Of a DNA stretch of 64,000 nt, positions 2-64,000 are shown in pieces. The notes under the pieces were generated by a model. The model worked only from the letters and a program-made list of their open reading frames with translations. It was not told where the DNA came from and ran no database searches. The first letter of the stretch is position 1; each line of letters starts with the position of its first letter. Made by a program: the position numbers and the translations under genes. Source of the stretch: a virus; the IMG/VR virus record IMGVR_UViG_3300027777_000001, positions 10,080-74,079 of that record, one strand, 5' to 3'.

Positions 2-3000
2 CCGTACTTCTTGGATTACTCAGTGTGGAAACAACACCGAGTCGGAATTGCGACGAATGGCTTTAACCCTAACTCGAGTAAAGCTCAGCGTCAACAGTCG
101 TACCAGCCTGATTGGGAAACCAAGATTGATAGGAATGACTCTGCACAAATGGATAATTTCTATTTGGGAGTTGCAGAGGGTTTTGGTATTGCAACAGACA
201 ATGTTCCAAATGCAGTAAGCCTCGTAACAATCAAAGATCGGTTTGCACAGGCCGATGTAGTAGAGGCGGTCGAGATATTGCGTCAACGTATGGTTAGTGT
301 TGATCCAGAACCGTTTACCGATGCTGAGCAACAGAAGATAGTTTCACTGGTTAAGAAAGGCAAAGAGAATCTTCATTCTCTGAATTCATTAATTGCTTTG
401 GCTCATTTCTCTGAAGCGGTTAAGACTAATTCAGATACATTCACGGTTCAGATCCCCGCAGAGCGTGATGGTAAGACGAATGGCCCAATGCTGGCTAATG
501 CCTTCTTTGGTGTGGGATCAAGCCCTGCAGAGCTCTTTAAGACCCTCAATCGTGGGGGATTCTTTGAAGTCGGTAATCCAGATACACAGTTCAATATCTG
601 GAAAGGTAAAGGCAATCTAGACCTGTACGAAAAAGGTACAGGGAATTTGCTTAGGACTCTTCAATGGTTGATCACAGAAAAGAAAGTCTTTGGTTTTATT
701 AAGGATACCGTTCAGGTATTCACCAAGAGTTTGACCGACCCTAAAACAGGGGGTGTCAATTCTGTCGGTCGAAACATGATGAAGAAGCCTACCCAAGAGG
801 TGGTCTATGGCTCGTCTTCTAAAACCACCGTGGATAACATGGCACAGGTTTTCATTGAAAGCGTCTACGCCCGTATCGAGGAAGTGGCTAAAGACGATCT
901 CTCTCACATGACGTTGGCTAAGTTGATCAAAGAATTAAACAGTCTTTTGTACGGAACAGACACAAAGTTTAACTCGAACGATACCGCACAAACAATCTTG
1001 GATAAAGACTTCAGTAGTGCGGATATAGCAGCAATGAAGGACAAGTTTATAAAGACTCTTGGCAAAGCAGTCAAAGAGACTGTGAAGAGTGACTTCCATG
1101 CATTCACATTTAGGACACAGATCTTTACAGCCACAGCTGGCTTGACCTTTTCAATCTATAAGGCAGTCTACGATACGGCTCGCAAAGACTACATCAAGGA
1201 GCTGACTGAGCTTGGGGAATTTGATGTTAATCCCGCCTTTGAACGTAGGGGTAAGAATGGGAAAATGTCTCAAATCTCTGCTAGGCAAACACACGATTTG
1301 AATGCTGCTCAGGAAAAGGTATTAAAAGAACGTGTCTTAGCAGTCTACCCAATCGTACATAGTTTGTTCTCTAAAGAAAGCAATCAACTAGAGGCAGGAT
1401 TGTTTATTAGTAAGACTGAAAGAAAGTTATCAAAAGATCCAAACTACCAAGTTGAAGTCCAATTTGGAACCCAAATTAAAGATTTGGGTAGATCCCGCGT
1501 CAACATGGCTGCAATGCAAACCAACCAAGTGGGCCCTGGTGTAGCAATGTTGCCTAACTTAATTCAGGCTTCAGATAGTTATATCTCGCATTCAGTACAG
1601 GCTGCGATGAATGCGCTTAACCAACATGATGCATTGATTACAGGGCTTGGAAAGACTAAAGAAACTGCACAGCTTCTTAATGCTGCTACGTGGAAACTGT
1701 TATTGAACTATTCCCCAGCCACAGAAATGTACGAGGCATTCGTACGTAACATTCTGGGTATGGAAAGTATGCTTGCCAAGAAGGAAGTCTCTAAAGATGT
1801 ACTAGCCCTCTTTGCTGCATCTATTGTCGAGCAGACTTACCGCTTTAATGGGCCAGATACGGATGTGCCAATTGATCCCCATGAGTTTCTAGGGATCCAT
1901 TTAGCCCTGATGAAGAATATGTCTTTTCGTGCTGACAGTATGAAGTTCTCTACTTTGGGTCTGACAGCATCAATTGACCAGTACACTTTTGAGGGTGGAA
2001 ACTTTGCAGTGGATGAGAAGTTACGAGAAGCGGCTCTAGCCAAGAAAGCTGAGCTGGTCTCTGAGATTGATCCTGAGACACAAGCTGCTGTTGATAGTCT
2101 TGAACAACGTCTCCAAACTGCGATCACTGCAGCAACAATCGCTGCGAATAAAAAGATTGCTCAGACTCTCAATATTGAACTCGATCCTGAAGGATATGGC
2201 GTAACTGAACAACAGTTGGAAGACCTGCGTACAGAGAGCCGAGAAGATGCAAGTATCAACGACACGGTTGCTGACCATTTAACTAACGCCCAAGCCTTTG
2301 CCTTACTCTCACACGCAGTCAAGGATAAGTCTTTGGGCGAGACTGTTGTTGAGATGCTTAAAGAGGTCATGACTAAGTTGCGAGAATCCAAGGGTGCCAT
2401 GAACTTGGTGACAGCCTTAAAGGTCTTACAGCCTGCTAACCGTGCAGAGATTGCTCAGTTACTCATGGATCGAGCCAGTAAGATTCCTGCTAACTTGTGG
2501 GGTATTCAAGGTACGCCAGACATTAAGAGTGAGGCTCACTGGGTAGACTTCTTTGAGAAACGGGGCAATGTTAAAGGCGAACAATTGGTTCGTGCTTTAA
2601 AAGATAGGTTGATTGAGCAAGGTGGCCCAAGTAACGTCAAAGACTTCAATTTGGAGATGCTTAACCGGATCAGTAAGTTGATTAGCCCAACGCTTACCAT
2701 TCGTTATGTCACGCCATTCACAGCACCTAGCCAAGTTATCCAGCAGGCCAAAGACAACGCACGGGCTTGGTACATTGCCACAACCGATGGTGTGGATACG
2801 ATCTACATTCTCTCTACAGACTTTAAACACTCTGGCTTAACCACGGAAACCCTCCTGCATGAGATTCTCCACAGTGCTGTAGCTCGAACCATTAAGTCTG
2901 AGCAAGATGCACGGAAAAGGAATCCAACCCGTAAGACTCCATTACTTGCCATCATCGATGACTTGGAGCTTCTTCGTTATTTGGCTAAGAAACATATCGA

Positions 3001-6000
3001 TGCTGACCCAGAGTTAGCCGCTAAATACGGGCCAGCAGTCAGTAGCATCGATGAGCTTATTGCTTGGGGAATGACAAACACAGCCTTCCAACAAGAAGTC
3101 TTAAACAAGATGCAAGGGGTTCCTTCTCGCACCAACAACAATGCAATCACTGGTTTAAAAGCCATGATTAATGCATTGGTCGCAATCCTGTTTAAGAAAA
3201 CAGAAGGTCGTGAGGCAGAGATTCTTGGTTCTGGTTTAAGTATCTTGATTACTAACGTGTCTGATTTATTTACTGAGGCCGAGAACAAGCAAAGCCAGAC
3301 CATTAACGAAACCCTGAATCGAAGCCAAACCCATACGGCTCCAGATCCAGCTTTCTATACCACCGCAGAGATATACGATTCCTTGGCAGGAGTCTCTCCC
3401 GCACCCCTAGCTTTTGATAGCCAGCTGCGAGACCTACTCAGCGGGATCGTCAATAAGCTGCATGGCACAGCGGGAGTCTTGCATGAATCCTTAATGGATC
3501 GTCAAGCCTTATCTGCTCAAGACGTATACCTCAAAGCACTGGCTACAGGACAAGCCCCCTTTGCATCAGCCACCATTGCCTCTGGCTTTCAGTTCAGCCA
3601 ACAGGAAGGGTTCGTCATCGAGCAGGTTGAGGCCACAGTCAGAGCAGCGATTGATCGTAATGAGAATACCCAGAGCTTTGCCTACAAAGGCTTGGATGCT
3701 CTGTACAACGAAGCCAAAGCGAACCTTGCGCCTAAGGACTTCCATCAGGGTGACTGGAACACAGCCACGCAGGTAGAGAAGGATACAGCCCAAGAGTTGT
3801 ATGACTTCTTATTTGTCATGGCTAAGGCTCTACCAAGCACCAACCCATCAACCGCAGGAAATACACATGCTAATTCAGATCGATTAGCCCATCTCAGCAG
3901 ATTCGCTGCAATGGGTCTTGCCCATGAAGGGGTTAATAAGCTCCTGCAGGGCATGACAGGATCTGGGCTGACTACCACGGCTACCCCTGCACCAACGAGC
4001 TTTCTAGCCCGTCTGAAGGCCTTGTTTGATCAGATCTTGGCTTGGTTCAGTGACAAGCAGACTGGAATCAAACCGGGTGACAAACCTGATGCCAGGTTAG
4101 AGAAATTAGTTGATACCTTGGTTGGGATTGAAGCTAAGAAACGTGCTGCAGCCATGGCTCGACAAAATGCTCTGTTCACAGGTCTACAGAATGTGTCCAA
4201 TAATGTTCTTAACGCGGCTAACACGGGTATCAATAAAGTAGGGGCAGCCGCCGCAAGAAGCAACAATGGGGCAGTGAAAGGCGTAGGGTTTGTGATTAAC
4301 GCGGTCTCTGGAGGTAGGGTTAACCAGATCATTAATAATGGCATGAACTACTACGCTACATTGAATGGTGGTAAGCCAGACCTCTTCACAGATACTGTGG
4401 CTTATGTGCGTGGGCCAACGTCTCAGATGGAGGAGTTGTTCCGTATGGGTAAGAAGCTAGAAGCGGATCGTCGAGCATTCATCGACAACACAGCTACGCT
4501 TCTCTTGGCTGCATATCGTAATGGTGGGCAGGATCTGACACAGATCCAGAAGAAAGCCATTACTTCCTTGGTACGTTCTGATGCCCAGTCACTCTTAGCA
4601 GCAGGCTACACCATGGCTCAGTTAGCTGAGTTCTTGGGCAACGGGACACAACGCCAAGACGAGATTACGAAGCTTGAAGATAGTCTGAAATCCTTACATC
4701 CCCAGTTCTATAAACAGTTCTTGGGTCAATCCAAGCAACTTGCATTCATCTTGGCTAATGGAAAAGCCACGCATGAGAACTCTATGCTGAACGCTTTGAA
4801 TATTGCACGGATGTACAACACACCCACAATGGGTCAGTTAACCGTAGCAGAAGAGGCTGCAGTCCAAGCCTTGGTAGATCCCTTGGTGTCTCTCTGGGCG
4901 ATTGAGTATTCACCCACAGTGCTTCGTGAGACATCCAGAGATGTGTTGCTCGATGAGTCAGCACGCTCCAATGGTGAGAACGGGATTGCCGCAACCCTTG
5001 CCATGCACGCACACTTACTCAAAGATTCAAAAGATAAGCTCTTTGATGGCAGCGAGGTATTGCGTACCAAGGGCTATTTACCAGAGGTATATAACCCAAG
5101 AACAGACATCCAAGTAGCAGGTGATGTCGAGGGTCGGAACTTAATTGACAAGGGCTACTCAGTGGGGGGTGTTTTGCCCAAAGATCCTAATGACCCCGAT
5201 CCTCAGACCGTAAAAAAATTGTATGTACGTGAGGACTCAGGGATGGTGGCTCATGTTACAGGGATGATTTCCTTGAAAGACATGAAAGCTAAAGGCTCTG
5301 CTCAGATTGGAAAAGAACGTAGGTTCTATAAACCTAAGGGAGATTGGAATGCCAGTGAAGTCGTAAGAGTCACTGGATCTCAAAGAAACGCCATTGCTTG
5401 GATGGCTCAAAATGGCGATACATTTGATCCACGAAACGTCACTGGGACGTTCATGATTCCTACACTAACAAGCGAAGGGGATATTTCTAACTATCGCTAT
5501 GAAATGAGCCATGCCCGTAAGGATTCAATCCTCGAGCGAAACAATAACTTTGAACACGTACTTGGGGTATTTGCTGGCAACACATTCGATAAGATTACCT
5601 CTGCCCAACATAACGCTAAGGTTATTCAAGCCTTGCATGACCACTACTCAGTGGACTATGCAGGACGGTCTGTGTCATACGTAGAAGTAGGCCCTAATAG
5701 CCGAGACCCAGCCATGCGGGAAGTCTACCGCTTGCTTCCTGAGGCCACAAAGAAGGAGATAAGAAGAGTGTGGGGAACGGAAGCCATGCTGGTTAGAAAC
5801 GACATGATGAATCTGACATTTGGGTATAGGAAATTTAGCCTGTCCGAGATGTTTGATAAAGACCCTTCTACAAGGAATGCTTATGAAGATCTGTTTGTCT
5901 CGATTGCTACCTTTGTCGTAGCAGGGTACGCTAGACTGCAACTTGGAATGGATCCAGCCCAAGCCATGCAGTATGCCAAGCGTACAGGGGTGATTGTTAA

Positions 6001-16374: not shown

Positions 16375-17112
16375 TTAATACTGTCCCTGAGTGAGGGCGT
16401 GCCAACTCACGGGATATAAAGGAGCAATAATCTCGCCTACTGAATAGGCAAGTTCTTGAATCTCTCTTTGAGCGTGGGAGTCAGTACGTTGATTAAAGAA
16501 ATTAGCAAATGCGTACAGAGAACCAGTCCAGAGCCAATTAACTTCCGTACCTTGAGGTAGGATTAATCTGGCTTGTTCTGGACAAATACCGTCTAGGATC
16601 ATTTGGCTATATAGAATCAAACTGGTTTCACAATGAGATTCATACATTTTTAAATGCCAATCACTTTGAGGGTGTATACCTGCGCTACCTTGTTTAACTG
16701 ACTCGGCAGCTTGTCGAAAATGGGTAGGAATATATATCTCTGGAGTCGAGGAAATATACCTACGACTTTCCTCAGATTCCACAAAGCCAATCTTGTGTTT
16801 AAAGGCTTGTCTAGCTATGGGAACAGGGGCTTGCATACGGATGGAGATGTGTGGATGCCCGAATGGAACCCAGTGTTCTGGGATCGATCTGAGGTACACA
16901 GCGAGCTTTCTAGCCTCGCCTTGATCATCGGTATTAACCATTTGATCAATTAATCCTTCCCAATCACCTGAAGCCATCCCTCTGGCTAGGAATCGGATTA
17001 AGTTGTTATTCTGTTTTTCTGTGAAGTTCTCAGCTAGATTAGCGAAGCTTTGCCTAGCAAAGTTAGCGACGTCGGAGTCGCTGAGATAATGATTTTGATA
17101 CGTTGCTTTCAT
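16375..17112 (-). CDS. thyX: Flavin-dependent thymidylate synthase
   Basis: HWVPF, ARQAFKH, ESRRY, PEQARLILP, HAQREI. Confidence 0.93.
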   Translation of the reverse strand: MKATYQNHYLSDSDVANFARQSFANLAENFTEKQNNNLIRFLARGMASGDWEGLIDQMVNTDDQGEARKLAVYLRSIPEHWVPFGHPHISIRMQAPVPIARQAFKHKIGFVESEESRRYISSTPEIYIPTHFRQAAESVKQGSAGIHPQSDWHLKMYESHCETSLILYSQMILDGICPEQARLILPQGTEVNWLWTGSLYAFANFFNQRTDSHAQREIQELAYSVGEIIAPLYPVSWHALTQGQY

Positions 17113-17229
17113 GGAATTTGCTCTTGAAGATAATGCTTTGGATTATTATCGAGCGAGGTTTATTGTATATCTATTAATATAAACAGATATACTCTATTAA
17201 TCGCACAAAGCGTTCGCGGAGCGAAGCTA

Positions 17230-18825
17230 ATGATTAGTCAGGGCATGGTTTGTGGTACAGGTTTAAGTAATCAACCTAAACCCGGAGACCCTAGTAATTA
17301 TTCAATTCTGAGAGCCAGTCCCACATTTGGTGGGATTCATGTCTCTTGGACATTCCCTTTGCTTAATCCATTTGCAGTCGCTCATACCCTGTTATATCGG
17401 GGAACGAACGCTGACTTTAATAATGCAGCTGAATTATCTGTAGTCGCTGGAAGTTCTTATTTAGATCAATTCTCTGGTGGGGATCCAGTTCTTTATTATT
17501 ATTGGATTAAGTTTGTCTCAGTCAATGGAACCTATGGGGATGTAATAGGCCCAGCCTCTTGTTGGGCTAATCCCACGGTCGATAGCATTATGGAGTTACT
17601 CACCGATAGGATTGATAACGGAGTCTTAGCTCGGGCTTTAAAGGGTGAAATCGAACGCATTACATTCCTAGCTGATGGGTTGACGCAAGAGGTTACCTAC
17701 CGTCAAGAAGAGGATGCAACGCTTGCTCACGCCTATAACGGGCTTCAAGCCAGCTTTGATCAGACTGTGTCTTTGGTACTCACTGAGACCAATCTAAGGT
17801 CTACAGCAGATAGTTCCTTGGCTCAGCAGATCACCACAGTTCAATCTCAATTGGGGGATAACTTAGCCAGTGTTCAGCAATTGATGCAGACCAATGTTCA
17901 AGTGATCAACGGGAAGCTTGTTTCCATCGGTGCTCTCTATACGGTCAAGCTTTCGGTTAATGGTTTGGTAGGTGGGTTTGGAGCCTATAACGATGGACGG
18001 ACTGTTGAGGCTGGATTTGATGTAGATCTGTTCTGGATTGGTCGAACACAGGCTGATAAACGTAAGCCTTTTATTATTAATGATGGTATTGTTTATATTG
18101 ATAATGCCATGATTCATCAGCTAACGGCTGACAAGATTGATACCCGTAACCTCACGGTTAAAGATAATTCAGGCAATGTCATCCTTGGTTCTGGGATTTC
18201 ACTCAATCCTACTTACGCTGCTGATGGAACTCGCAATTCCGATTTGACCTCCAGTATTGCTAGTGCAGCACAACGAGCAATCTGGGCAAATGTATCGGGA
18301 GCTAATCGCCCTGAAGATAATGCAACATGGGGGGCTGACTTCGATAGGAATATGAAGGGCAAGATCCATGCTGGCAATATCTGGACGTATATAGATGCTG
18401 CAGTCATTGGTGGAGCGTTTATTGGGGATGCTGCCATTTCCAATGCCAAGATTGGTAATGCCGAAATATCTACTCTCAAAATTCAAGGTAATGCAGTGAG
18501 TTTTGGTGCATCAATTGGTTTAGGTGGGGCGGCAGACTTCGGTACCTCTGTTGGAGGCACATTAGTAGTTATTGGTTATTCAGACGGATCTAACAGCGAA
18601 TCAAATCTAGTAATTAATACTGACGCTGGGGGAAAGGGGGTTGCTCCGGGTGCCCCTATTATAATTTTTTATGATGATGGGTACATTCATGGGCAATATG
18701 TTGATCATTGGGGGCCATGTACGTGTGTAGCCTCTTTTAATATGGGCCCTGGAAATCATCATATTGAATTTTCACAAGATAATAATAGAGGTGGGCAAGC
18801 AATGTGGATGTTCTTCCAACGATGA
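17230..18825 (+). CDS. Tail tip / host-specificity protein (J-like C-terminal domain)
   Basis: Fn3-like YYYWIKFV, coiled-coil middle, LYTVKL..NG..GGFG and IGxAxIxNAKI repeats. Confidence 0.7.
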   Translation: MISQGMVCGTGLSNQPKPGDPSNYSILRASPTFGGIHVSWTFPLLNPFAVAHTLLYRGTNADFNNAAELSVVAGSSYLDQFSGGDPVLYYYWIKFVSVNGTYGDVIGPASCWANPTVDSIMELLTDRIDNGVLARALKGEIERITFLADGLTQEVTYRQEEDATLAHAYNGLQASFDQTVSLVLTETNLRSTADSSLAQQITTVQSQLGDNLASVQQLMQTNVQVINGKLVSIGALYTVKLSVNGLVGGFGAYNDGRTVEAGFDVDLFWIGRTQADKRKPFIINDGIVYIDNAMIHQLTADKIDTRNLTVKDNSGNVILGSGISLNPTYAADGTRNSDLTSSIASAAQRAIWANVSGANRPEDNATWGADFDRNMKGKIHAGNIWTYIDAAVIGGAFIGDAAISNAKIGNAEISTLKIQGNAVSFGASIGLGGAADFGTSVGGTLVVIGYSDGSNSESNLVINTDAGGKGVAPGAPIIIFYDDGYIHGQYVDHWGPCTCVASFNMGPGNHHIEFSQDNNRGGQAMWMFFQR

Positions 18826-19202
18826 ATAGGTACATATCTTTCTACGACCCAACTGGCAAAATCACTGGTATGACTTGGGGAAGTGACTATGTCATGGATA
18901 TGCATGACAAGTTACAAGGAACTCGAGAAGGGCAGAAGCCCTACGTCTCAGGAGAATGGCAAGATAAGCCTGTGTATGTATTGAATGGAGAAGTTACAGA
19001 TCGACCTGTTAATCCAATGGTTGTTTCCAATCACTATCTATCGGGCATGGTTCATCCCTGTACGATTGCAATTAATGGTACGGAGTACCACTGTGACTCT
19101 TCTACAGCTGACTTAGAGTTATTTCACCCCGGTGTATATAAAGTAAAAGTCACTGCTTGGCCTTATTTAGATAGGGAGTTCACAATTGAAAATCCAGCAT
19201 AA
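18822..19202 (+). CDS. Tail-associated hypothetical protein
   Basis: ATGA overlap with upstream stop; C-terminal PGVYKVKVTAWPY. Confidence 0.6.
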   Translation: MNRYISFYDPTGKITGMTWGSDYVMDMHDKLQGTREGQKPYVSGEWQDKPVYVLNGEVTDRPVNPMVVSNHYLSGMVHPCTIAINGTEYHCDSSTADLELFHPGVYKVKVTAWPYLDREFTIENPA

Positions 19203-19374
19203 AGAAGATTATCGATTATTAAGGTCTCGTAAATATCCCAATATTGGTAATCAATTAGATGCTGTTTTAAAGCTTACTCTTAGTTTAAAAGAGCAGGGAA
19301 TTAGTATTCCTGTAGAAACCCAAGACTGGTTAAACCAGTGTTTATTAGTTAAATCTACCTACAAGAAAGATTAA
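19186..19374 (+). CDS. Small tail-associated protein
   Basis: R...YP.IG.QLD motif typical of small tail-fibre-associated proteins. Confidence 0.6.
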   Translation: MKIQHKEDYRLLRSRKYPNIGNQLDAVLKLTLSLKEQGISIPVETQDWLNQCLLVKSTYKKD

Positions 19375-19514
19375 TTAGATAATCCAAGTTTATTATTAAC
19401 TTGATTATCTAGGGATTATCTTGCTTAATCGTATAGAATAAGACTATTAGATTATAAAAATCTATTATTTTATTTAATGTAGGTCTCTTTACTGATATAT
19501 AAAAGGGGTTTGAT

Positions 19515-19910
19515 ATGGGTGCTTTTAGCAATTACATGGAAGAGAAGATTGTTGAGCATTTCCTGCGAAACAATGCAATCACTCCTCCCGTTACTGTGTA
19601 TATGGGTTTATTTGAATCCGATCCCGGTGAGGGTACTTCGGGTACTGAGACAGCATTCTCTGGTTATGCACGCCAATCTACCGCTTGGACTGCTCTGGAT
19701 GTATCAGGTCAGACTAAGAATGTCGCAGCCTTGACTTTCCCAGCCAATGGTAATGCTTCAGCTTCGGTCACGATCTCACACATGGCTTTGTTTGATGCGT
19801 CCACTGCGGGTAATCGATTGTTCTATGCAGCACTCTCTGCCCCTAAAACCTTGAGTCCAGGGGATGTGTTGTCGTTCGCAAGTAACGCCATTGTGTTTGG
19901 TTTGGATTAA
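19515..19910 (+). CDS. Virion structural protein (tail-fibre associated)
   Basis: SNY.E..., VY.GLF..DP, GYARQ, FDA.T.GN.L motifs. Confidence 0.75.
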   Translation: MGAFSNYMEEKIVEHFLRNNAITPPVTVYMGLFESDPGEGTSGTETAFSGYARQSTAWTALDVSGQTKNVAALTFPANGNASASVTISHMALFDASTAGNRLFYAALSAPKTLSPGDVLSFASNAIVFGLD

Positions 19911-19929
19911 TTCTCACACAGGCGCTTAA

Positions 19930-21147
19930 ATGAGAACACTCAACGGCTCCTCAATTAACAGCACGCTTGCGCCTTCATGGGTTAAGCGTGCTTTGGTTGT
20001 GGCAGTCGTTGCAGCGGCCTCAGTTGTATCCACCAATTATGTACGTACAACCTTTGGGAATGTCAGCACTAGTGCTGTAGCTTCCTATGCGATTGTTCAT
20101 TCCCAGACCCATCAGGCTAGAGCTTCTGGTACGGCTTCAGCTGGAGTCTCGATTGCTCCCACATTCACAATGGCAGGGCGTGTCTCAGGACAAGCCTCTG
20201 CCTATGGTGTAGCACTAGTTCGACGCAACGTATTTGGTGAGGCAGGTGGTGATGCCAGAGCCTATGGTGAAGCCTTAACAGCTCAAGCCATTGGTAATGT
20301 ATCTAACCTGACTGCATCTAGCACGGTTGTCCTAGCCAATGCTCACAGGATTCGTCCTGCGAAGGGAATCAGCTATTCAATTAATAGTTCTATCCAAGCT
20401 GTGCCACATATCATAGTGGCTGCTCGGGTAGGAACCTCTTACGGACTCTCTGCTTACACACGTGCTGAAGCCAGTGTGAAGCGATCAGGCAATACTTACT
20501 TTAATCGTGATGGCTTCGTGCCTCTTGCTAAAGCAGGAGCTACTGGATACACCCTTCAAGATCGAACCAAGATCATTGCTACCTTTGGTGCCTTTGACTT
20601 TGCTCAATCAGTCGCATCGAGTCATGCTTTTGTATATCACCATGGCTTTGCGAATACGCTGTCTACCGCTACTGGAACGATTGCCTTAAGTACTCGCTTA
20701 GCCATTGGTCGAGCCAGTGGTACGGCTGCTGCCTCAGCTTCTTGTGTGGGAGTAAAGACTCGATACTCAGGTGCAACGTCTAACGCTACCAGCACCGCAT
20801 ACGCTCTTAAGAGCATCGCACGTTACTACCCTCGCCTGAGTATGTCTGCAGGAGCTACGGCTACTGTGCAGCCTCTGCGTACAGCGTATGCGTATGTGCC
20901 TATTACCCGTGGTGAGGCCACATCAAATACACCAGTCACAGGAAATCAATATCGAGCTACGGTTGCAAGTGCAGCTGCAGTAAGTGTTGTGGCAAAAGCA
21001 ACAGCGGTACGTCTGGGTCAAGTTCGAGCAACGGCTATGGTCATTAGCACTGAGATCTTTGCAGTGGCTAACTCGGATTCACTTGCTCCCCCATCACGTT
21101 ACATGAACGTGCCCTATGCCTCTCGGAGTATGGCACTCACCAGTTAG
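19930..21147 (+). CDS. Ala/Ser/Thr-rich virion structural protein
   Basis: 405 aa low-complexity beta-rich ORF in tail cluster. Confidence 0.6.
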   Translation: MRTLNGSSINSTLAPSWVKRALVVAVVAAASVVSTNYVRTTFGNVSTSAVASYAIVHSQTHQARASGTASAGVSIAPTFTMAGRVSGQASAYGVALVRRNVFGEAGGDARAYGEALTAQAIGNVSNLTASSTVVLANAHRIRPAKGISYSINSSIQAVPHIIVAARVGTSYGLSAYTRAEASVKRSGNTYFNRDGFVPLAKAGATGYTLQDRTKIIATFGAFDFAQSVASSHAFVYHHGFANTLSTATGTIALSTRLAIGRASGTAAASASCVGVKTRYSGATSNATSTAYALKSIARYYPRLSMSAGATATVQPLRTAYAYVPITRGEATSNTPVTGNQYRATVASAAAVSVVAKATAVRLGQVRATAMVISTEIFAVANSDSLAPPSRYMNVPYASRSMALTS

Positions 21148-21456: not shown

Positions 21457-22506
21457 ATGACTCAACTCTTCACCAATAACGCTACCTCGGCTCTTGCTGC
21501 TACAACAACTACGACTGCAACAAGCCTAGTTCTTACCACTGGCTCAGGTGTTAAGTTCCCTGTGCTTGCTGGTGCAGACTTCTTCATGCTTACCTTGGTA
21601 GGATTGAACGCTGAGTTCAATGAATCAAGTTGGGAAGTGGTTAAGGTTACAGGTAGGTCTTCAGATACTCTGACAGTTGTACGAGCCCAAGACAACACTT
21701 CTGGTGTAGCTTGGACTTCAGGTACACGGGTTGAGCTTCGTGATACAGCAAATACTTTATCTGGCTTTGCACAGAACGTAGATAACTTATCTGGCTTAGC
21801 CAGTGCAGCCTCAGCAAGGGCAAATCTTGGTTTAGGTGCAGCTTATGGATATGCTGCTCTAGACTCAGGGAATAAGGTTCCATCAGCGAACCTTCCAAGC
21901 TATGTTGATGATGTGCTTGAGTATGCCAACCTTGCAGCATTCCCTGCGTCAGGTGAGACAGGCAAAATCTACACAGCGTTGGATACCAATAAGATCTATC
22001 GTTGGAGTGGATCTGCATACATTGTGATCTCAGATTCCCCTGGTTCAACAGACGTTGTTCCTGAGGGCTCGACCAACCTCTACTTCAGTGCTGCGAGAGC
22101 ATTGGCTGCAACGGTAGCCTCTTACCTAGGTCTTGCAGGAGGCACCCTTACAGGGGCTCTGATAGGCACAAGCATTACAGCTAAGAAGAATGTGTTGACA
22201 CCTGTAGCTTTGACAAGCTCAAGCGGATCCATTGCTGTAGATATGGTGGATAGTAATTTCACCCATACCCTCACAGAAAACACAGTCCTAGCCAACCCAA
22301 CCAACTTAGTCGCAGGACAATCAGGGCGCATCAAGTTTACGAACCATGCCTCTGCACCTAAGACTCTTGCATACGGTTCTTATTGGCTACCTGTAGGCGG
22401 AGTCGTGCAAGCCCTGACAGCCTCTAATAGCGCTGTCGATCTGCTTGTGTATGAAGTGGATTCGTCTACTACGATCACGTTTAAGCTGGTGAAGGATCGC
22501 AAATAA
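21457..22506 (+). CDS. Tail fibre protein
   Basis: FTNNA start, EVVKVTGRS.DTLTV.R, ARANLGL, LPSYVDDVLEY, EGSTNLYF modules. Confidence 0.75.
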   Translation: MTQLFTNNATSALAATTTTTATSLVLTTGSGVKFPVLAGADFFMLTLVGLNAEFNESSWEVVKVTGRSSDTLTVVRAQDNTSGVAWTSGTRVELRDTANTLSGFAQNVDNLSGLASAASARANLGLGAAYGYAALDSGNKVPSANLPSYVDDVLEYANLAAFPASGETGKIYTALDTNKIYRWSGSAYIVISDSPGSTDVVPEGSTNLYFSAARALAATVASYLGLAGGTLTGALIGTSITAKKNVLTPVALTSSSGSIAVDMVDSNFTHTLTENTVLANPTNLVAGQSGRIKFTNHASAPKTLAYGSYWLPVGGVVQALTASNSAVDLLVYEVDSSTTITFKLVKDRK

Positions 22507-24791
22507 TGACGCATCCTTTATTCTTGGCTGATGATGGTGATACAGGGTACAAACTTGCACGCTCGCTTAGGACGAGGGCGAGTGCGTCTGCGTATTTAAA
22601 TCGGACATTTGGTACGCCAACCAATCAAGCAAAATGGACATGGAGTGCTTGGGTCAAACTTGGGCAATTAGGTTCGTCTCAGGTTTTATTAAGTGGTAAT
22701 ACAGGTTCGACAGACACTACTACGTTTTATATGGCGTATGGTTCGGGCGGCAATTTATTTTTAAATGGTTCATCAACATCGTTTCGTCAAAGCAGTGCCG
22801 TTTACCGCGACCCTTCATCGTGGTATCACGTTGTTTTAGCTGTTGATACAACGCAAGCTACAGAAGCCAATAAATTATTGTTATGGATTAACGGTGTTGC
22901 TCAAACCTATGCTGCAACAAGTGCAATTACTACTTGCGGTTTAAACGCAAATGGTGCGACTGCAACTATTGGAAAATACTCGGCAGCAAGCAGCTCATAC
23001 TTTGATGGCTACATCACCGAAGTCAACTTCATCGACGGTCAAGCCCTAACCCCCTCATCATTCGGCTCAACCAACGCTCTCACAGGCGTATGGCAACCCG
23101 CACCCTATACGGGAACGTATGGAACCAATGGCACCCATCTTGAGTTCAAAGACAATAGCTCGCTGACTACATCATCGAATGTAGGCTTGGGTAAAGACAC
23201 TAGTGGCAATGGCAATTACTGGACTACAAATAACATCAGCATCACGGCTGGTGTGACGTATGACTCCATGCTCGATGTGCCTACGCTGACGAGTGCGAGT
23301 GCGAGTAATTTTTGTGTATTTAACCCGCTAGATAAAGGCAGCGCACTTACTGTTTCAAACGGTAATTTGTCTATAACGGGTAGTGCTTCAAACAACAGTA
23401 TGGGAAAGAGTAGTTTTTGGGTTACTTCAGGAAAATGGTATTGGGAATCTACTGCTACCGCAGGAAGCCTTGGAGCAGTAGTTGGAATCGGAGGATTAAC
23501 TTTTTCTCAAATTCCTTGGTCTGGTGATATGTATGGCTATGATGCAAACGGAAACAAAATTGTTAACGGAACATCATCTGCATACGGATCGACTTACGCA
23601 GTCAATGACGTTATTGGGGTAGCTTTAGATTTAACCGCTGGAACTATTACATTTTATAAAAACAATGTATCGCAAGGTGCTATTACAGGCGTGTCAACTT
23701 CTTTACTCTGGACTCCATTTAATCATGCAAATAACGGAGTTACGGTTCATTGGAATATGGGTCAACGCCCTTTCACCTACACACCACCGTCAGGCTTCCT
23801 ATCTTTAAACTCGTTTAATTTACCTGATGCTGCCATCGTCAAGGGCAGCGATAGCATGAGCATCGCACTCGCTTCAGGTGCGACTATCAAAGCTACGACT
23901 GAAGCCCTGTACACAGGACAGTTTCTAGAGTGGATTAAAGACAGAGCAAACGCTAATAACCATCAGCTACTAGATGGTGTCAGAGGTTTATCCGCTGTCT
24001 TGCAATCCAATACCACGGCTGCTGAAACAACGTACACAGCACCATCAGGAAGCTCTGTAGGCTTCGCATGGAAAGCAGGGGCATCAGCGGTATCAAACAC
24101 CAACGGCTCAATCACATCGACTGTGAGCGTTAATGCGTCTGCGGGGTTTAGTGTTATAACTTTTAACGGCACAGGCGCAGCAGCTACGGTTGGGCATGGG
24201 TTGGGTGTTGCACCTGCGTTCTACATTGCTAAGTACCGTAGCGGTTCTGCACCAAACATTGCAGGGTGGGCTTGTTACCATAGCGCATTAACATCTGCCG
24301 CTTACCGTATTGATTTAAATTCAACAAGCGGTCAGATTAGCGACACCAACGCTTTTAACAGCACAGCCCCCACATCATCCGTATTAAGTATTGGTACAAA
24401 CTTGTCGGTTAGCAGTACGCCAATGGTTGCCTACTGCTGGACACCCATAGCCGGATACTCAGCGTTTGGTAGCTACACGGGTAATGGATCGGCTGACGGT
24501 GCTTTTATATATTTAGGATTTAGACCAAAGTTTGTGATGATTAAGGCAGCAACTGCCGTATCCGGTGGTGATTGGGTGTTAATTGACACTGCTAGAAACC
24601 CCAACAACGTAGCTGTTAATTGGCAATTCCCAAATGCTTCGACAGCCGAATCAAACTATGTGAACGTAGCTGACATACTTTCCAACGGTTTCAAAATTAG
24701 AGCTACTTGGGACACAATTAACGCACCTGGTGCGACATACATCTACATGGCGTTCGCAGAAAATCCCCTGAAGCACTCCCTCGCACGTTAA
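22506..24791 (+). CDS. Receptor-binding fibre with ConA/LamG and SPRY-like domains
   Basis: WTWSAWVK, WYHVVLAVD, KDTSGNGN.W, SGKWYWE, DVIGVALDL, GFRPKFVMIK. Confidence 0.75.
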   Translation: MTHPLFLADDGDTGYKLARSLRTRASASAYLNRTFGTPTNQAKWTWSAWVKLGQLGSSQVLLSGNTGSTDTTTFYMAYGSGGNLFLNGSSTSFRQSSAVYRDPSSWYHVVLAVDTTQATEANKLLLWINGVAQTYAATSAITTCGLNANGATATIGKYSAASSSYFDGYITEVNFIDGQALTPSSFGSTNALTGVWQPAPYTGTYGTNGTHLEFKDNSSLTTSSNVGLGKDTSGNGNYWTTNNISITAGVTYDSMLDVPTLTSASASNFCVFNPLDKGSALTVSNGNLSITGSASNNSMGKSSFWVTSGKWYWESTATAGSLGAVVGIGGLTFSQIPWSGDMYGYDANGNKIVNGTSSAYGSTYAVNDVIGVALDLTAGTITFYKNNVSQGAITGVSTSLLWTPFNHANNGVTVHWNMGQRPFTYTPPSGFLSLNSFNLPDAAIVKGSDSMSIALASGATIKATTEALYTGQFLEWIKDRANANNHQLLDGVRGLSAVLQSNTTAAETTYTAPSGSSVGFAWKAGASAVSNTNGSITSTVSVNASAGFSVITFNGTGAAATVGHGLGVAPAFYIAKYRSGSAPNIAGWACYHSALTSAAYRIDLNSTSGQISDTNAFNSTAPTSSVLSIGTNLSVSSTPMVAYCWTPIAGYSAFGSYTGNGSADGAFIYLGFRPKFVMIKAATAVSGGDWVLIDTARNPNNVAVNWQFPNASTAESNYVNVADILSNGFKIRATWDTINAPGATYIYMAFAENPLKHSLAR

Positions 24792-29829: not shown

Positions 29830-29900
29830 TTAGTCTGTGTGAATTGCGTGTGAATCCTGTGTGAATTCACACACCGCTTGGTACCGTTTAGTGGGGGTAG

Positions 29901-29940
29901 AAAAGAAAAACCGCTGTGCCTTCAAGGGGCTACAGCGGTT
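29901..29940 (-). terminator. Intrinsic terminator downstream of att core
   Basis: aaccgctgt...acagcggtt inverted repeat followed by U-rich tract on - strand. Confidence 0.7.
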
Positions 29941-29955
29941 AAAAGCGGTTTGTAA

Positions 29956-29981
29956 TGGTGGAGCCGGGGGGAATTGAACCC
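29956..29981 (-). other. att core: 3'-terminal fragment of tmRNA (ssrA) or tRNA-Ala
   Basis: Minus strand GGGTTCAATTCCCCCCGGCTCCACCA = T-loop, T-stem 3' side, alanyl-type acceptor strand and CCA; no 5' half present. Confidence 0.85.
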
Positions 29982-30067
29982 TGCGGTGATTTACCTGTTT
30001 ATGCGGGTCTCGAGCCAGTAAAACCTAATCTGTGTGAATTCTGTGTGAATTCATTTTGAGAAGGGTT

Positions 30068-31285
30068 TTACGCCTCATTTCCATAGGCACTAGGCAAGGA
30101 TTTCTGAAAGTTCTTGGGTATCCATTTGCCATATCTCTTGAACACCATCTCGGCATCCACATGACCCATCTGCTGAGCCAACCAGAAAGGGTTAGCACCA
30201 TTGGTCAGTAAAGTCGATGCGTAAGTATGCCTGATTTGGTAGAGGTTACGGTAGCGGATCTTAGAGCGTTCAAACAAAGGTTCCCAAAAGGTACGAACGA
30301 TCTGCTGTTCTCGAGCCCATGGTTGACCGGATCGAGGGTTCATCCAGACTCTGCCATTGTCCTCATGCTCAAGCTCTTGTTGCTGAGCCAGTGCCTCAAT
30401 CGCTGAGACATTCAGATCAATCTCGCGGGCTCCTGAAGAGGTCTTAGGAGCTTTCTCAAACTGTCCCACCACATCCCCACGCCTGCCTGTGACCTCGTTG
30501 GTCGAGATCCTGACAAGCTTCTTATCCATGTCGATTGACTCCCAACGCAGAGCAATAAACTCTCCTGGTCGCAATCCTGTGGCAAACCAGAACTGAAGGG
30601 TAGAGCGTTCGTCTGACCGACAAGCTTTAAGTAAAGCTGCAACCTCTTCATGGTCAAAGGGTTCAATGGCTCCACGTTTGGACTTGGTGCTGGTCTGGCT
30701 AAGTAGCTTCTTGAGTGCAACATTATCCAATGGATTGGATTCAATCAAGTCATCGTTCAGAGCATCCTCTAGTGCTGATCGAAGTGGGGTAAGCCTGTTC
30801 CTTACGGTCTTGGCAGTTACCCCAAGCCCAGCAATCCATGTTCTTAATACAGGTGCTGTCAGTTCGTTGATCGGTAGCTTGTCAAAAGCAGGGATCAAGA
30901 TCGAGTTAATGATCTTGTAATAGCCCTGATATGACGAAGGTGACAACGTATCGTTCTCAGTCTGCTTGTCATAGATCCCAAGCTGAGCCCTAAGTAAATC
31001 ACCAATGGTTCGTTTGTGGATAACCTTGACTACACCCTTAGTGACCTTGGGTGAGTCAGGGAAATACTTAGCGTATTCAAACGTACCATCAGCAATCTTT
31101 CGACGGATTTCACTTCTCAAACTAGCTGCATAATCAATGTTTGTTTTATTGATCTTGCAGACTGGTAATAACTCACGACATTGCTGACTCTCGAAACTGA
31201 ACGCAATCTGAATGCGTTGAATCTCTCGGTCAGTCCTTATTGCTATGCCAACTGGCGTTTCAGGGGAACCTGACTCTCGACCCAT
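30068..31285 (-). CDS. int: Tyrosine integrase with N-terminal arm-binding domain
   Basis: TGLRPGE (R), PKT (K), YQIRHTYAS, QMGH, RYGKW (Y); DUF3596-like N-terminus. Confidence 0.95.
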   Translation of the reverse strand: MGRESGSPETPVGIAIRTDREIQRIQIAFSFESQQCRELLPVCKINKTNIDYAASLRSEIRRKIADGTFEYAKYFPDSPKVTKGVVKVIHKRTIGDLLRAQLGIYDKQTENDTLSPSSYQGYYKIINSILIPAFDKLPINELTAPVLRTWIAGLGVTAKTVRNRLTPLRSALEDALNDDLIESNPLDNVALKKLLSQTSTKSKRGAIEPFDHEEVAALLKACRSDERSTLQFWFATGLRPGEFIALRWESIDMDKKLVRISTNEVTGRRGDVVGQFEKAPKTSSGAREIDLNVSAIEALAQQQELEHEDNGRVWMNPRSGQPWAREQQIVRTFWEPLFERSKIRYRNLYQIRHTYASTLLTNGANPFWLAQQMGHVDAEMVFKRYGKWIPKNFQKSLPSAYGNEA

Positions 31286-31446
31286 TTCTCAACCTCGGTG
31301 GGATTAATCCAAATGCTACCTTCGCGTTTGACCCACTGTACTCCTTCTGTCCATTTACGGTTTCTACGCCTTGCTCGGACAGCCTCGGAGGTATCTCCTG
31401 AGAGATCACAATACTTATTGATCTTGACCCATTTCATTGCAAGCAT
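31243..31446 (-). CDS. xis: Excisionase / recombination directionality factor
   Basis: Small basic winged-helix-like KWV...KYC..SGDT..AV......W.EG..W....IWIN...VEKWVE; overlaps int start. Confidence 0.8.
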   Translation of the reverse strand: MLAMKWVKINKYCDLSGDTSEAVRARRRNRKWTEGVQWVKREGSIWINPTEVEKWVESQVPLKRQLA

Positions 31447-31448
31447 GG

Positions 31449-31754
31449 TTATTTTCCTCGAGTGTTAGGGTTGGTACTTGAGTTAGGGTTCTGGTTTGAG
31501 TTGGTGTCAGGAGTCGTACTTGACCCTTTAGGTGCAGCAGGCTTGGCACCATCAGCAGGGGTAATGATTGAGATACCTTTGCCAGTGTTGTTGTAGATCA
31601 TGCTGGAGGTATTGTCATCGTTGATGATGAGGGAGTTCTCACCCATGGGTAAGACCATCCCACTCTTGCCCGTACGTTCATCGAAGAAGAACTGGGCTTG
31701 AACCATTGATGATGCACCAAGGCTCAAAAGTATCATTAATAGAACACGTTTCAT
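31449..31754 (-). CDS. Secreted hypothetical protein
   Basis: Signal peptide ending VQA; low-complexity C-terminus. Confidence 0.65.
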   Translation of the reverse strand: MKRVLLMILLSLGASSMVQAQFFFDERTGKSGMVLPMGENSLIINDDNTSSMIYNNTGKGISIITPADGAKPAAPKGSSTTPDTNSNQNPNSSTNPNTRGK

Positions 31755-44812: not shown

Positions 44813-45065
44813 CTTGGACTCGAAGTAGGGTGTTGTGATAGGTGTACAGAATCGCTGCCATGTCATTGGGCTTGGCGATAGGAAGCATGGATTGAGCAAG
44901 GTCGATCACATCTTGCAACTTATCGAGAGTCGGATAGACTCCCATGGCATGAGGGACTGGATTAGTGCTGTGTTTCAAGATGGATCTGCTCCGGTGTTGA
45001 TTCAGCAGGCAAGCCTTCTTGAACACGTTGAGCTTTGATCTGCTCGATGATCTTGGCAATCCCAC
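44760..45065 (-). CDS. Hypothetical protein of N4-like phages (start uncertain)
   Basis: PI...N....L.TYHNTLL motif. Confidence 0.6.
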   Translation of the reverse strand: MGLPRSSSRSKLNVFKKACLLNQHRSRSILKHSTNPVPHAMGVYPTLDKLQDVIDLAQSMLPIAKPNDMAAILYTYHNTLLRVQDENNHSPESDSLPTKGL

Positions 45066-45393
45066 TGGAATAGAACAAGCCAGCCAATTGACCTGAGGTG
45101 CAACTGTTTAGATACTCTTGGACATTTGCAGGGGTTAAGGCAGGCGTTGAGAGGGCTCTGGCAAGGCCTTCTGGCTCCAAGCTGTATTCATCCACGATAG
45201 CCATGAAAGACCGGATACGGTCTGTTATACGGTTCACAGGAGGTGGTGAGATTCCAGCCTCTACGAGCACACGGTTGACAGTCCGTTTAGAGGTCTTAAA
45301 CTTTTCTGCGAGCTCGGTTTGGTTGAATATATCAGCCCGAAACCAGTCGGCAAGGAGTTGCTTTTCAGCAAGGGAAATACACTTTACGGTCAT
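44962..45393 (-). CDS. HTH DNA-binding protein
   Basis: NQTELAEKFKTSKRTVNRVL helix-turn-helix. Confidence 0.7.
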   Translation of the reverse strand: MTVKCISLAEKQLLADWFRADIFNQTELAEKFKTSKRTVNRVLVEAGISPPPVNRITDRIRSFMAIVDEYSLEPEGLARALSTPALTPANVQEYLNSCTSGQLAGLFYSSGIAKIIEQIKAQRVQEGLPAESTPEQIHLETQH

Positions 45394-45584: not shown

Positions 45585-46411
45585 TTATGACAAGGCATAG
45601 TTCCCTAGCCTGATGTGTACGCCTAGGTCTTTACTCTTCTTCATCCACTTTCCCTTGTAGCCAGTGATCTGGGTAAGAACATCGGACAAGATCTCACTCT
45701 CGGCTAGATCAGCCATCACGTAGATGTACTGTTGACGAAGATGGTTCAGGTTATTAGGGTGACACTTGAACTCATCATGGATCGTCACTAGAGGGAAGGG
45801 TGCATACATCTGCATCTGGTCGATGAGAGTAGACAACTTCTCTAAGTGTGCTGTGGATAACTGATCCACAGTCTTGGTTGTTAGATGAGGCAGGATCACC
45901 ACATCAGCTAACTTGCTACGGTTGAACTGCTCGATGTAATACATTGTTTTACCTGACAAGGCAGGTGAGCTGAAGTTTGGATACATTCTTCGGACATCTA
46001 ATGTGTCCTTGATTAGAGCCTGAGCATTGCTGACAACTACTGGATCGTAGTTACAACGCCTGTGCATAGCCCGTAATACGTAACCATCGATGCTATGTAT
46101 ACAATTCGCCGCCAGTGATAATCCCTTCTTAGTCCCTACATTGTCATAGTAGGTATAGGTGAAGGTGGCATGATCTAACTCATCAACCTCGATGCGTGCA
46201 TCGATCTTGTCCATGACTTTGACCTTGGCATCATACCCATCGGGTAATTGCCAAGCGTGCTCCAAAGCCCATGGTTGCCATGATGCAAGCAGGTCTTGGA
46301 GAAGCTCCCAAGGCCCGGGTGCCACGATCTGAGCTGCCTGATAGAAGGCATCCAGTTCAGGACTATCCTCGCCAAATATGGCTTTGGGAGTCTTTTTACT
46401 ACCGTAGAAAG
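45585..46411 (-). CDS. RNA polymerase II large subunit (N4 gp16-like), exon 2
   Basis: (S)FYGSKK..., AN.IHSIDG, IHDEF motif C; in frame with exon 1 after splicing. Confidence 0.9.
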
Positions 46412-47247
46412 CAATGTGTTCAGGATAGTTCGTTAAGCTATCCCCGCTTTATTCAAGCTGCTATGTATTCCTACATAGATCAGACTATATCTTCACCCAT
46501 CACTGGGGTTCTGCGCTTCCACCCACTTGGGTGTACTCCCTTACGGGATAGTCGTTGCACCTTTTACAACAGCTTTACACATCTGGATAAATAGTTCTTC
46601 ATCCAAATCGCCTTTTGCTCTATTAACAGCCCATGCTACCCATTGAACATTACCCTGTGTGTACCCTAATTTAGGTTGCAGTTTGTCAATTGACAATCCA
46701 GCAGGGTGTTCTTTTTCAACGAATAGTGATTGGTTGGTGTATTTACACTTCCCATTTTGCTGTTTCCAGAGGTCAAGCATATATTCCATAGTGATATTAA
46801 ATGGGCGTTCGTTTCGTTTGTTGTTGGTTTTTGCTGAAGATATCCTCTGGCAAATAGCAGAAACTAACTTACGTTCGTCCCCTTTATATGGTGCAAATCG
46901 GCCTGTGCCATCGTAGCCTTTATGTTTAGCTCGCCATTCTCTAGCTTCTTTTGCTAGACACACACGACATTCTGGTTTGAAATCAGCAATGACGTTGGCG
47001 TTGAATTGTGAGCTGTTTTTACTTTTGGCGGGGCCGTATGCATTTAAAGGTTTAATTTCATTACAGATCCGACAGGTTTTCATCGTATTCCTATAGGTAA
47101 AGTCATAGAAGTATTTTACGATTATTTCTACGGAATAGCTATCATAACTTGGCTCAGGATTGTCCTTATTTTTCAATAGTGGGATGTTCCCTGAGTTCAC
47201 AGAATTGCGTATTTCTAGTTGCCTAGAAAGTGACCCCTTTTATTCTA
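46412..47247 (-). mobile_element. Group I intron (IA-like), 836 nt
   Basis: 5' exon ends in U paired with G in P1; terminal G; P aactcagggaac (47186-97), Q aatcctgagc (47152-61), R gtgcaacgacta (46549-60), S aagatatagtc (46483-93). Confidence 0.9.
46541..47083 (-). CDS. Intron-encoded homing endonuclease (HNH/His-Me-like)
   Basis: Start MKTCRIC with SD agga; CxxC pairs; SIDK....GY..GNVQWV...VN.AK. Confidence 0.8.
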   Translation of the reverse strand: MKTCRICNEIKPLNAYGPAKSKNSSQFNANVIADFKPECRVCLAKEAREWRAKHKGYDGTGRFAPYKGDERKLVSAICQRISSAKTNNKRNERPFNITMEYMLDLWKQQNGKCKYTNQSLFVEKEHPAGLSIDKLQPKLGYTQGNVQWVAWAVNRAKGDLDEELFIQMCKAVVKGATTIP

Positions 47248-47659
47248 AGGTCATTAGACACTTCTTGGCATCTGCTCGAGGGATTGTGATGTTGCTCCCC
47301 AAGATGGCATTCATCGTATCTGTGGTCAGGGTGTATGCGTCTGCTCGGACATTGGGGTTCGTTAAGCCCGTAGACGCAGCACCCGCAGGGCATCCTGTGA
47401 TAGCAGCCATGATCTGAATGCCTGAACATACAGCATCAAATCCAACCAAGTGTCCAGAGGGTTCCCCCCTCTGTGCTGCTCGGATAGCTTGGCAAGCCTT
47501 CATGTACAAAGGCTTCTTATCAGCCTGATCTACTAGGCTCTCTAAGATATCCAAGTTAGCCTCGGCCCATGTAATACGTTCCTCGAATAGAAGTTTGTCG
47601 ATACCGAATTGGTTTGCGACATCAATGAGTAAGTACTGCCAGCCTGTGAAGGTTTGCAT
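47248..47659 (-). CDS. RNA polymerase II large subunit (N4 gp16-like), exon 1
   Basis: MQTFTGWQYLLID.AN.FG.DK, motif A FDAVCSGIQ, first half of motif B RADAKKCLMT. Confidence 0.9.
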
Positions 47660-47669
47660 GATTAGACCT

Positions 47670-47888
47670 TTATGGGAATAGAATTGCCATGGCACGGATG
47701 TGCTTGGGTATGTTGTCGTGATTGGGTATCCACTGCCAATCGTATCCGCCGATACCTTTATCCATACAGAGGTACCAATTTTCTCCAAATTTCTTATATG
47801 TTCCTAAAATCCGTTCGGTACCCCAATCATCCCCATTGGGGAAGACTAGAACCTCACCGTTGGGACTGAAGTGATACTTTGATTTCAT
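47670..47888 (-). CDS. Small hypothetical protein between RNAPII subunit genes
   Basis: 72 aa, ATGA-coupled, SD ggag. Confidence 0.6.
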   Translation of the reverse strand: MKSKYHFSPNGEVLVFPNGDDWGTERILGTYKKFGENWYLCMDKGIGGYDWQWIPNHDNIPKHIRAMAILFP

Positions 47889-63620: not shown

Positions 63621-64000
63621 ATGAGTGCAATTCTTACTTCTGCTCTGACTGATGCCACCCTTGAAGGGTCAGGGGTGTTTGATGTATTGATGCGTGCAAA
63701 CAAAGCACACCTCGAGGCAGAGTTTAGTAAGAATCGTATCAAAGGCCCAGAGTATGCAACCGTCTACCTTGGAGCCCTCACACAGGTGCTTCAAGTTTCA
63801 GCCAGCTTTGCCTTGGCTCAACATAAGGCTGGGTTAGAAGCAGATCTTTTAGCCGAGCAGATCGCATTGTCTACGGCTCAACGTGAGTTGGTTGTTCAGC
63901 AGAAACTTCAGATCCAAGATGCCATGCTAACGGCAGCTCTTCAACGTACAGAAGTAACAGCTCAAATTGCACAGATCAATGCACAAACTATTGGGGTGAC
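63621..64000 (+). CDS. N4 gp54-like structural protein, 3'-truncated
   Basis: G.GVFD.LM.A.KAHL..EF...RI.G.EYA.VY; SD aagga; open to window end. Confidence 0.8.
   Translation, partial: MSAILTSALTDATLEGSGVFDVLMRANKAHLEAEFSKNRIKGPEYATVYLGALTQVLQVSASFALAQHKAGLEADLLAEQIALSTAQRELVVQQKLQIQDAMLTAALQRTEVTAQIAQINAQTIGV

Follow-up and report, generated by a model that had tools for sequence, protein, structure and literature searches.

A putative lambda-type recombination module with a tmRNA-derived attP site in an N4-like phage genome

The IMG/VR virus record IMGVR_UViG_3300027777_000001 is a complete N4-like phage genome, and we analyzed 64,000 nucleotides of it (record positions 10,080 to 74,079, hereafter the window). 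Positions 29836-31446 of the window hold an overlapping excisionase–integrase gene pair (xis-int) followed by a non-coding, 217-bp attP site of the lambda style. We conclude that this is probably a working lambda-type site-specific recombination module carried by the N4-like genome. The anatomy of attP, its match to the host, the selection on int, and the attL and attR products that close relatives of the module have formed in nature can all be read directly from the DNA. In the mechanism that we propose, the N-terminal domain of Int would bind five to six arm repeats while its central and catalytic domains would bind the core, and the enzyme would recombine this core, 30 nt of attP, with an identical stretch at the 3′ end of ssrA, the host gene for transfer-messenger RNA (tmRNA). 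Insertion would rebuild ssrA at attL with a terminator supplied by the phage and leave xis-int beside a 30-nt partial copy at attR, from where Xis would direct excision. The module itself was probably acquired, through mosaic exchange, from conventional temperate phages that infect the same hosts.

Integrase, excisionase and attP

The int gene (30068-31285, minus strand) encodes a tyrosine integrase of 405 aa. Its N-terminal arm-binding domain matches the Pfam family Arm-DNA-bind_2 (PF12167, 5e-20), its SAM-like core-binding domain matches Phage_int_SAM_3 (PF14659), and its catalytic domain matches Phage_integrase (PF00589, 1.5e-17). We aligned the protein with 12 relatives, giving 13 members that include two chromosomal genes adjoining tmRNA genes. 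Arg239, Lys278/Lys281, Arg352, His375 and the nucleophile Tyr385 are invariant in all 13, and the window Int thus carries the catalytic set of a tyrosine recombinase. The position of the first histidine in the HxxR motif is occupied by Tyr349 in every aligned member, the chromosomal ones included, which marks the substitution as a family trait and not a defect. Comparison with the relative L002 gives a dN of 0.035 and a dS of 0.53 (dN/dS of 0.066), and int is under strong purifying selection. An integrase cluster (P0001) is 95% identical to the window Int and lies on a contig of up to 9.9 kb, while the nearest named homologs are chromosomal integrases of Bordetella, Comamonas and Acidovorax (50-54% identity).

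The xis gene (31243-31446, minus strand) encodes a 67-aa excisionase, or recombination directionality factor, and overlaps the start of int by 43 nt; the overlap is kept in all relatives (L002-L006, L148, L149 and L151). Besides adjoining int, the protein matches the PHROG excisionase families phrog_9668 (2e-9), phrog_2917 (8.6e-9) and phrog_539 (1.1e-7), with a weak Pfam match to DUF1233 that falls below the cutoff.

Reading in the direction of int, the stop codon is followed by two tandem GAATTCACACA repeats (30052-30031), which form the P′ arm between int and the core and appear on the plus strand (30031-30052) as two 11-bp copies of TGTGTGAATTC. The attP core (29952-29981, minus strand) consists of 26 nt identical to the 3′ end of host ssrA, comprising the T-loop, the 3′ acceptor strand and CCA, plus the tetranucleotide TTAC. 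The reverse complement of 29956-29981 is GGGTTCAATTCCCCCCGGCTCCACCA, the tmRNA 3′ end, and the phage sequence that comes next in the direction of int is TTACAAACCGC. ARAGORN and Rfam searches found no whole tRNA or tmRNA in the window, and so the core is a fragment, as expected for attP. Next comes a replacement terminator (29899-29951, minus strand), in which seven conserved nucleotides (AAACCGC) after the core TTAC lead into a hairpin and U-tract (29940-29899) with a predicted energy of −24 kcal/mol and a z-score of −2.7. The hairpin is preserved through compensatory changes in the relatives L150 and L148. It also lies directly 3′ of an intact tmRNA in contig L146 and at the same position after host ssrA in contig L147, both described below; the hairpin and U-tract are a replacement terminator for the rebuilt ssrA. 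The P arm (29836-29873) contains three tandem arm-type repeats and a fourth, inverted copy that overlaps the last of them. The octamer GTGTGAAT occurs six times in the 64 kb on both strands together, and all six copies fall within 214 bp (29837-30050), with the core separating two of them from the other four. An integrase with an N-terminal arm-binding domain is therefore paired with matching arm repeats on both flanks of its core. Similarity of the window to L002 or to L146 stops exactly at 29832-29834.

The initial annotation of this DNA had proposed an intact tyrosine integrase with all catalytic motifs, an excisionase-like gene overlapping it, and an att site directly downstream of int. 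The integrase holds with the qualification that the first histidine of HxxR is a tyrosine throughout the family; the excisionase is confirmed by the 43-nt overlap and the three PHROG families; and the att site is confirmed by the tmRNA 3′-end core and its six flanking octamers.

The related attP sites fall into three classes that share the core, the next 11 nt and the hairpin, with the core invariant in all of them. What distinguishes the classes is the arm repeat, which is ATTCACAC in the window, L002 and L147, ATTCGCAC in L150, L146 and the host-genus genome G782, and AAATCGACG in L148, L149 and L151. Within each class, the class-specific repeat fills the same 2 + 3 positions of the two arms: the two-repeat P′ position is occupied by ATTCGCAC in L150 and by AAATCGACG in L148, L149 and L151, and the three-repeat P arm is kept, with class-specific sequence, in L002, L150, L148, L149, L151, L146 and L147. 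Such a pattern is expected if the arms co-evolve with their Int. The integrases of these relatives are 58-59% identical to that of the window.

Host match and natural recombination products

The attP core is identical at 30 of 30 nt to the native attB (ssrA plus 4 nt of flank) in one genus of freshwater Burkholderiales. The core is present in 41 of the 55 genomes of this genus, in many over the full 30 nt (the 26-mer plus TTAC), and intact host tmRNA genes end in the core sequence, which identifies the module as one that targets a tmRNA gene. Among the matches listed, the 26-mer is the ssrA 3′ end in many Burkholderiales; immediately 5′ of it the host sequence reads GGACGG and the phage sequence CACCGCA. 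The genus includes ‘Burkholderiaceae bacterium GE-14’, ‘Alcaligenaceae Baikal-G1’ and metagenome-assembled genomes (MAGs) from lakes, with loci of about 50% GC. The affinity of Int and the identity of the core are two independent lines that lead to the same order, Burkholderiales, and the core narrows the assignment to the genus. The predicted host is this freshwater Burkholderiales genus of about 50% GC.

We searched metagenome contigs for attL with a pattern composed of host GGGGG, the core and phage TTACAAACCGC, a combination that only attL can have, and found two contigs. The first, L147 (1,143 nt), is an attL: it starts with 56 nt identical to the 3′ part of the host tmRNA gene, followed by the core and by 0.9 kb with 89.6% identity to window positions 29981-29062. 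This phage part encodes an endolysin and a 93-aa gene product that are 93% and 87% identical in amino acids to their counterparts in the window. A DNA search of the host genus yielded the complementary attR, contig G782:C40, which begins inside int and passes a P′ arm and then the core before it reaches native flank, TTACCGCACATACCAACCCTTCGGGGTTGG. The 73 C-terminal residues of its Int are all identical to those of the window, with 23 of 219 nt different, and past TTACCGCACATACCAACCCTTCGGGGTTGG, the native host terminator region, it continues for 30 kb in host DNA.

The second contig from the attL search, L146 (Ga0192658_1027), lies inside a 103-kb host contig and carries an intact tmRNA gene (tag ANDERFALAA), the phage-type terminator and three arm repeats. 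The insert after ssrA (2770-5246) comprises 2.4 kb with a lipoprotein gene and a Fic/DOC helix-turn-helix (HTH) protein, beyond which lie host folB, psiE and COQ7. Relative to related genomes, about 330 nt of native flank have been replaced, and there is no second copy of the core that would correspond to attR. Since phage-type terminator and arm DNA has taken the place of the native flank and the second core copy is missing, we interpret L146 as a decayed attL scar.

The junctions that the initial annotation had suggested looking for thus exist in nature, with ssrA joined to the phage sequence left of 29956 in L147 and the end of int joined through the core to the native flank in G782:C40. 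All of these products derive from relatives of the module at 85-92% nucleotide identity and not from this exact genome. One could suppose that the junction contigs are false joins, made when an assembler passed from free attP to host ssrA through the shared 30-nt repeat, in which case no integration has been observed; the location of the junction pieces at contig ends, or on a contig of only 1.1 kb, would suit this. We consider it highly improbable, as a 30-nt repeat misleads only k-mers of 30 or fewer, and three independent data sets give complementary products: an attL, an attR and, within a contig of 103 kb, a scar. Phage arm DNA stands in place of the native flank in this scar, a substitution that no join artifact could produce, and no separate contig with an intact ssrA is present in G782.

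Four genomes of the host genus carry terminator-plus-arm segments, resembling the P arm, at further loci as well (L163:10725-10843; L166, at G683:C69:14356-14472; L167:6696-6759; and L165:4850-4974). Each is preceded by a degenerate core that reads ..CGCCTCCACCATTA.. or ..CTCACCACCATTAC.., and three of the four lie just after a gene ending in ..GLRxAF. These segments may be scars of insertion at secondary attachment sites, in which case the crossover would lie near CCACCATTA.

The N4-like backbone and recombinases in its relatives

The record comprises 74,079 bases, is rated 100% complete by CheckV, and repeats its first 99 nt at its end, with an exact 99-nt overlap between window positions 63902-64000 and record positions 1-99. 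The ‘direct terminal repeat’ assigned to the record is the mark of a self-closing contig and not a measured N4-type terminal repeat. An open reading frame (ORF) of about 4,000 aa matches the virion RNA polymerase (vRNAP) family phrog_2206 at E = 0, and the record also encodes a primase, ribonucleotide reductase, DNA polymerase (DNAP), Dda-like helicase, large terminase subunit (TerL), portal and major capsid protein (MCP). At least 11 core genes are syntenic with those of Pseudomonas phage phCDa (Schitoviridae), with amino acid identities of 53% for DNAP, 64% for TerL, 68% for MCP and 51% for the portal, and further matches for both subunits of RNA polymerase II (RNAPII), the primase, the helicase and the tail fiber. 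The set of genes that characterizes Schitoviridae (vRNAP, two-subunit RNAPII, DNAP, TerL, portal and MCP in synteny) is accordingly complete. By DNAP, the closest isolates are all N4-like, at 52-54% identity; a megablast search of 28-33 kb against GenBank phages returned no match, and the phage has no close cultured relative.

To the left of the module lie an endolysin-like gene and a gene for a small secreted protein, and to the right a DUF7220 gene, a gene with a dGTP diphosphohydrolase domain, and the DNAP gene. The whole interval between the tail fiber (18.8 kb) and DNAP (36.3 kb) is without a counterpart in phCDa. The module occupies a convergent variable zone, where the replication-gene arm meets the lysis/tail-fiber arm; the matching zone of phCDa contains holin, spanin and fiber genes. 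The initial annotation was correct in assigning the DNA to an N4-like phage (phrog_2206 and the phCDa synteny), in placing phage genes on both sides of the module, and in describing the sequence as the free, attP form, given that phage DNA lies on both sides of the core in a 74,079-bp contig with overlapping ends.

A block of about 8 kb around the module (26.4-34.2 kb) has relatives in contigs that are not N4-like and none in phCDa, as would be seen if the 74-kb contig were an assembly chimera in which part of a temperate phage had been falsely fused to an N4-like phage. We judge a chimera to be very unlikely indeed. The contig is self-closing, rated as complete, and of a size typical for N4-like phages; the GC content does not change along the block; the strand layout shows no break, and the block lies in the convergent variable zone that in phCDa holds the holin, spanin and tail-fiber genes; and an insert of this kind would require two false joins.

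Recombinases are also found in N4-like relatives. Several IMG/VR contigs with DNAPs 58-65% identical to that of the window carry them in the same zone downstream of DNAP. In L174 (IMGVR_UViG_3300011753_000047; DNAP 61% identical), a gene with Arm_2 and Phage_integrase domains lies 5.7 kb downstream of DNAP. A ybiT-like ABC-F ATPase gene follows 29 nt past this integrase and the GC content rises from about 0.50 to 0.62; this region (18288-21093) probably contains the end of an integrated N4-like prophage. L195 encodes a clear 423-aa integrase downstream of DNAP (17025-18296). Four further contigs, L176 (12080-13171), L181, L182 (15013-16113) and L191, share a 363-366-aa protein a few kilobases downstream of DNAP; in the two that were scanned, L176 and L182, its Phage_integrase matches are weak and below the cutoff.

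The large subunit of RNAPII is represented by two ORFs (45585-46325 and 47240-47788) that both match a single phCDa gene and are separated by a 219-aa ORF without a family, an arrangement across 45585-47788 that fits an intron in the gene. A 761-aa virion protein (22506-24791, plus strand) has its best relatives among SPRY/tail-fiber proteins of small podoviruses, such as Methylophilales phage MEP301 and pelagiphage HTVC011P, and not among N4-like phages; the tail-fiber zone is mosaic too.

Lysogeny and relation to known systems

Integrase-bearing N4-like genomes are a known kind. Zheng et al. (2023, mSystems 8:e00197-23; PMC10654107) report 54 N4-like genomes with hallmark genes of lysogeny, 14 of them marine and the others from freshwater and elsewhere, as well as 40 integrated N4-like proviruses, mostly in Moraxella. 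Those genomes, as presented in the accessible text of the paper, resemble the window in combining an N4-like IMG/VR backbone with an integrase, and the description in the initial annotation of such relatives as uncommon and poorly studied understates this work. The same text treats gene presence only and gives no att sites, targets or junctions; the target, the arms, the host genus and the attL and attR junctions were worked out here. To this the present analysis adds the identification of ssrA as the target and of the host genus, the covariation of the arms in the attP architecture, attL and attR products of the module from nature, and the finding that conventional temperate phages share it. 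The gain lies in mechanistic detail and not in a new kind of phage, as integrases in some N4-like genomes were already published.

Several observations weigh against a temperate N4-like phage. The same type of xis-int-attP module is found in conventional-looking phages (L150:10697-14242 and L148:6354-8671). L150 and L003 share genes with the window on both sides of int (a metallophosphatase, two small lysis-region genes, DUF7220 and the dGTP diphosphohydrolase), their other large genes have no match in the window, and no N4 gene occurs in L150; L148 carries RecE/RecT-type genes upstream of xis-int in lambdoid style. No contig was found that links a junction to an N4 core gene, and, as the junction contigs are short or cut at int and the module is mosaic, the junctions are not assignable to an N4-like backbone. 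Searches for prophages covered mostly draft genomes and MAGs, which are a sample, and their results mean ‘not found’ and not ‘absent’: the 55 genomes of the host genus yielded no N4-like TerL, 401 genomes of the family and 4 genomes with att-like matches yielded no portal, and none of these sets yielded a full-length N4-like prophage. No repressor of the CI, Cro or S24 type was detected among 48 window ORFs scanned against Pfam, a set in which many small ORFs have no family at all; the sole HTH match was a sub-threshold HTH_24 at 44962-45393. A simple scan of 1.3 kb upstream of xis-int found no sigma-70-like promoter. Finally, int and the ssrA fragment are co-directional in the window, whereas chromosomal homologs are convergent with their tRNA or tmRNA genes. 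In the chromosomal L143 and L144, for instance, int lies 3′-to-3′ against an intact tmRNA gene, whereas int of the window phage would end at the far junction, attR. We set orientation aside as an argument against function, as the window has it in common with every phage attP relative and with the attR contig.

These observations could be explained if the block works in conventional temperate phages and the N4-like phage acquired it by recombination as a passenger, remaining effectively lytic; integration would then be rare or abortive, as nothing would halt the lytic program driven by vRNAP. The mosaic nature of the module and its occurrence in non-N4 phages, the lack of a detected repressor or N4-like prophage in the sets searched, and junction contigs too short to name a backbone all agree with such a passenger. 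Its strong points notwithstanding, we regard it as unlikely, if worth keeping in view. Variants of int show strong purifying selection, and attP is present in the N4-like genome with its whole architecture intact. Recombinases occur at the same locus in several N4-like relatives, in one case adjoining host-like DNA, and the literature describes integrated N4-like proviruses (PMC10654107).

A working module carried by an N4-like phage genome remains the preferred reading. The proposal in the initial annotation that the phage integrates site-specifically stands at the level of the module, through the attL and attR of its relatives. That the N4-like genome itself integrates, that it circularizes first and that the lysogen is stable are inferences, as neither a repressor nor a full-length N4-like prophage was found; stable lysogeny by the N4-like backbone appears likely. 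One doubtful, rather improbable variant is lysogeny without a repressor, in which the early genes would be readable only by vRNAP, a late product absent from the lysogen, so that the integrated genome would be silent. The failure to find a repressor is the only datum that bears on this variant, which is otherwise neither supported nor excluded. Were it true, establishment and induction would depend on a switch yet to be seen, such as expression of xis-int or RNAPII driven by the host.

L003 and L150 were considered as syntenic N4-like relatives and discarded, given that the 1181-aa protein of L150 is tape-measure-like with siphovirus relatives and the other large genes are without a match in the window. 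A search of IMG/VR with the endolysin gave a best relative at only 48% identity.

Integrases paired with tRNA-type att sites have been described in other groups of podoviruses that encode their own RNA polymerase and were considered lytic, for example T7-like pelagiphages (bioRxiv 10.1101/410191) and LUZ100 (PMC10134795). Those phages belong to a different family. Early transcription of N4-like phages needs an injected virion polymerase. This dependence raises a distinct question, namely how an N4-like prophage is silenced and woken, and the module offers a way to study entry into lysogeny and exit from it in a phage with such early transcription. Both the choice of N4-like phages for therapy and their use as models presuppose a strictly lytic life style, an assumption that a temperate lineage documented by its target site, host group and natural junctions would make testable. 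The host group is also of interest, being common freshwater Burkholderiales with few known phages.

The closest functional parallel is the Int/Xis/attP system of lambda. Both systems feature a heterobivalent tyrosine integrase with an arm-binding N-terminal domain and an overlapping upstream xis, both have xis-int read toward attP, and both have an attP of about 220-240 bp in which arm repeats flank the core on either side. Lambda Xis is a small protein of the winged-helix type, to which the window Xis is likened by its sequence. The targets differ, with a 15-bp intergenic core in lambda and the end of an RNA gene with a 30-nt identity block here. Unlike lambda, the window phage supplies a terminator, has tyrosine in place of the first histidine of HxxR in Int, carries the module on an N4-like backbone, and has no CI or Cro that we could see.

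A second parallel is provided by elements that integrate at ssrA, such as CP4-57 of E. coli and Vibrio islands, which were reportedly surveyed by Williams in ‘Traffic at the tmRNA gene’. As proposed for the window phage, these elements insert at the 3′ end of ssrA and restore the gene with the copy of this end that they carry.

Directly upstream of xis, a gene at 31449-31754 (minus strand) encodes a 101-aa protein with a signal peptide, a low-complexity tail rich in Ser, Thr, Asn and Pro, and no family assignment. This protein may be a surface or exclusion factor expressed from a prophage.

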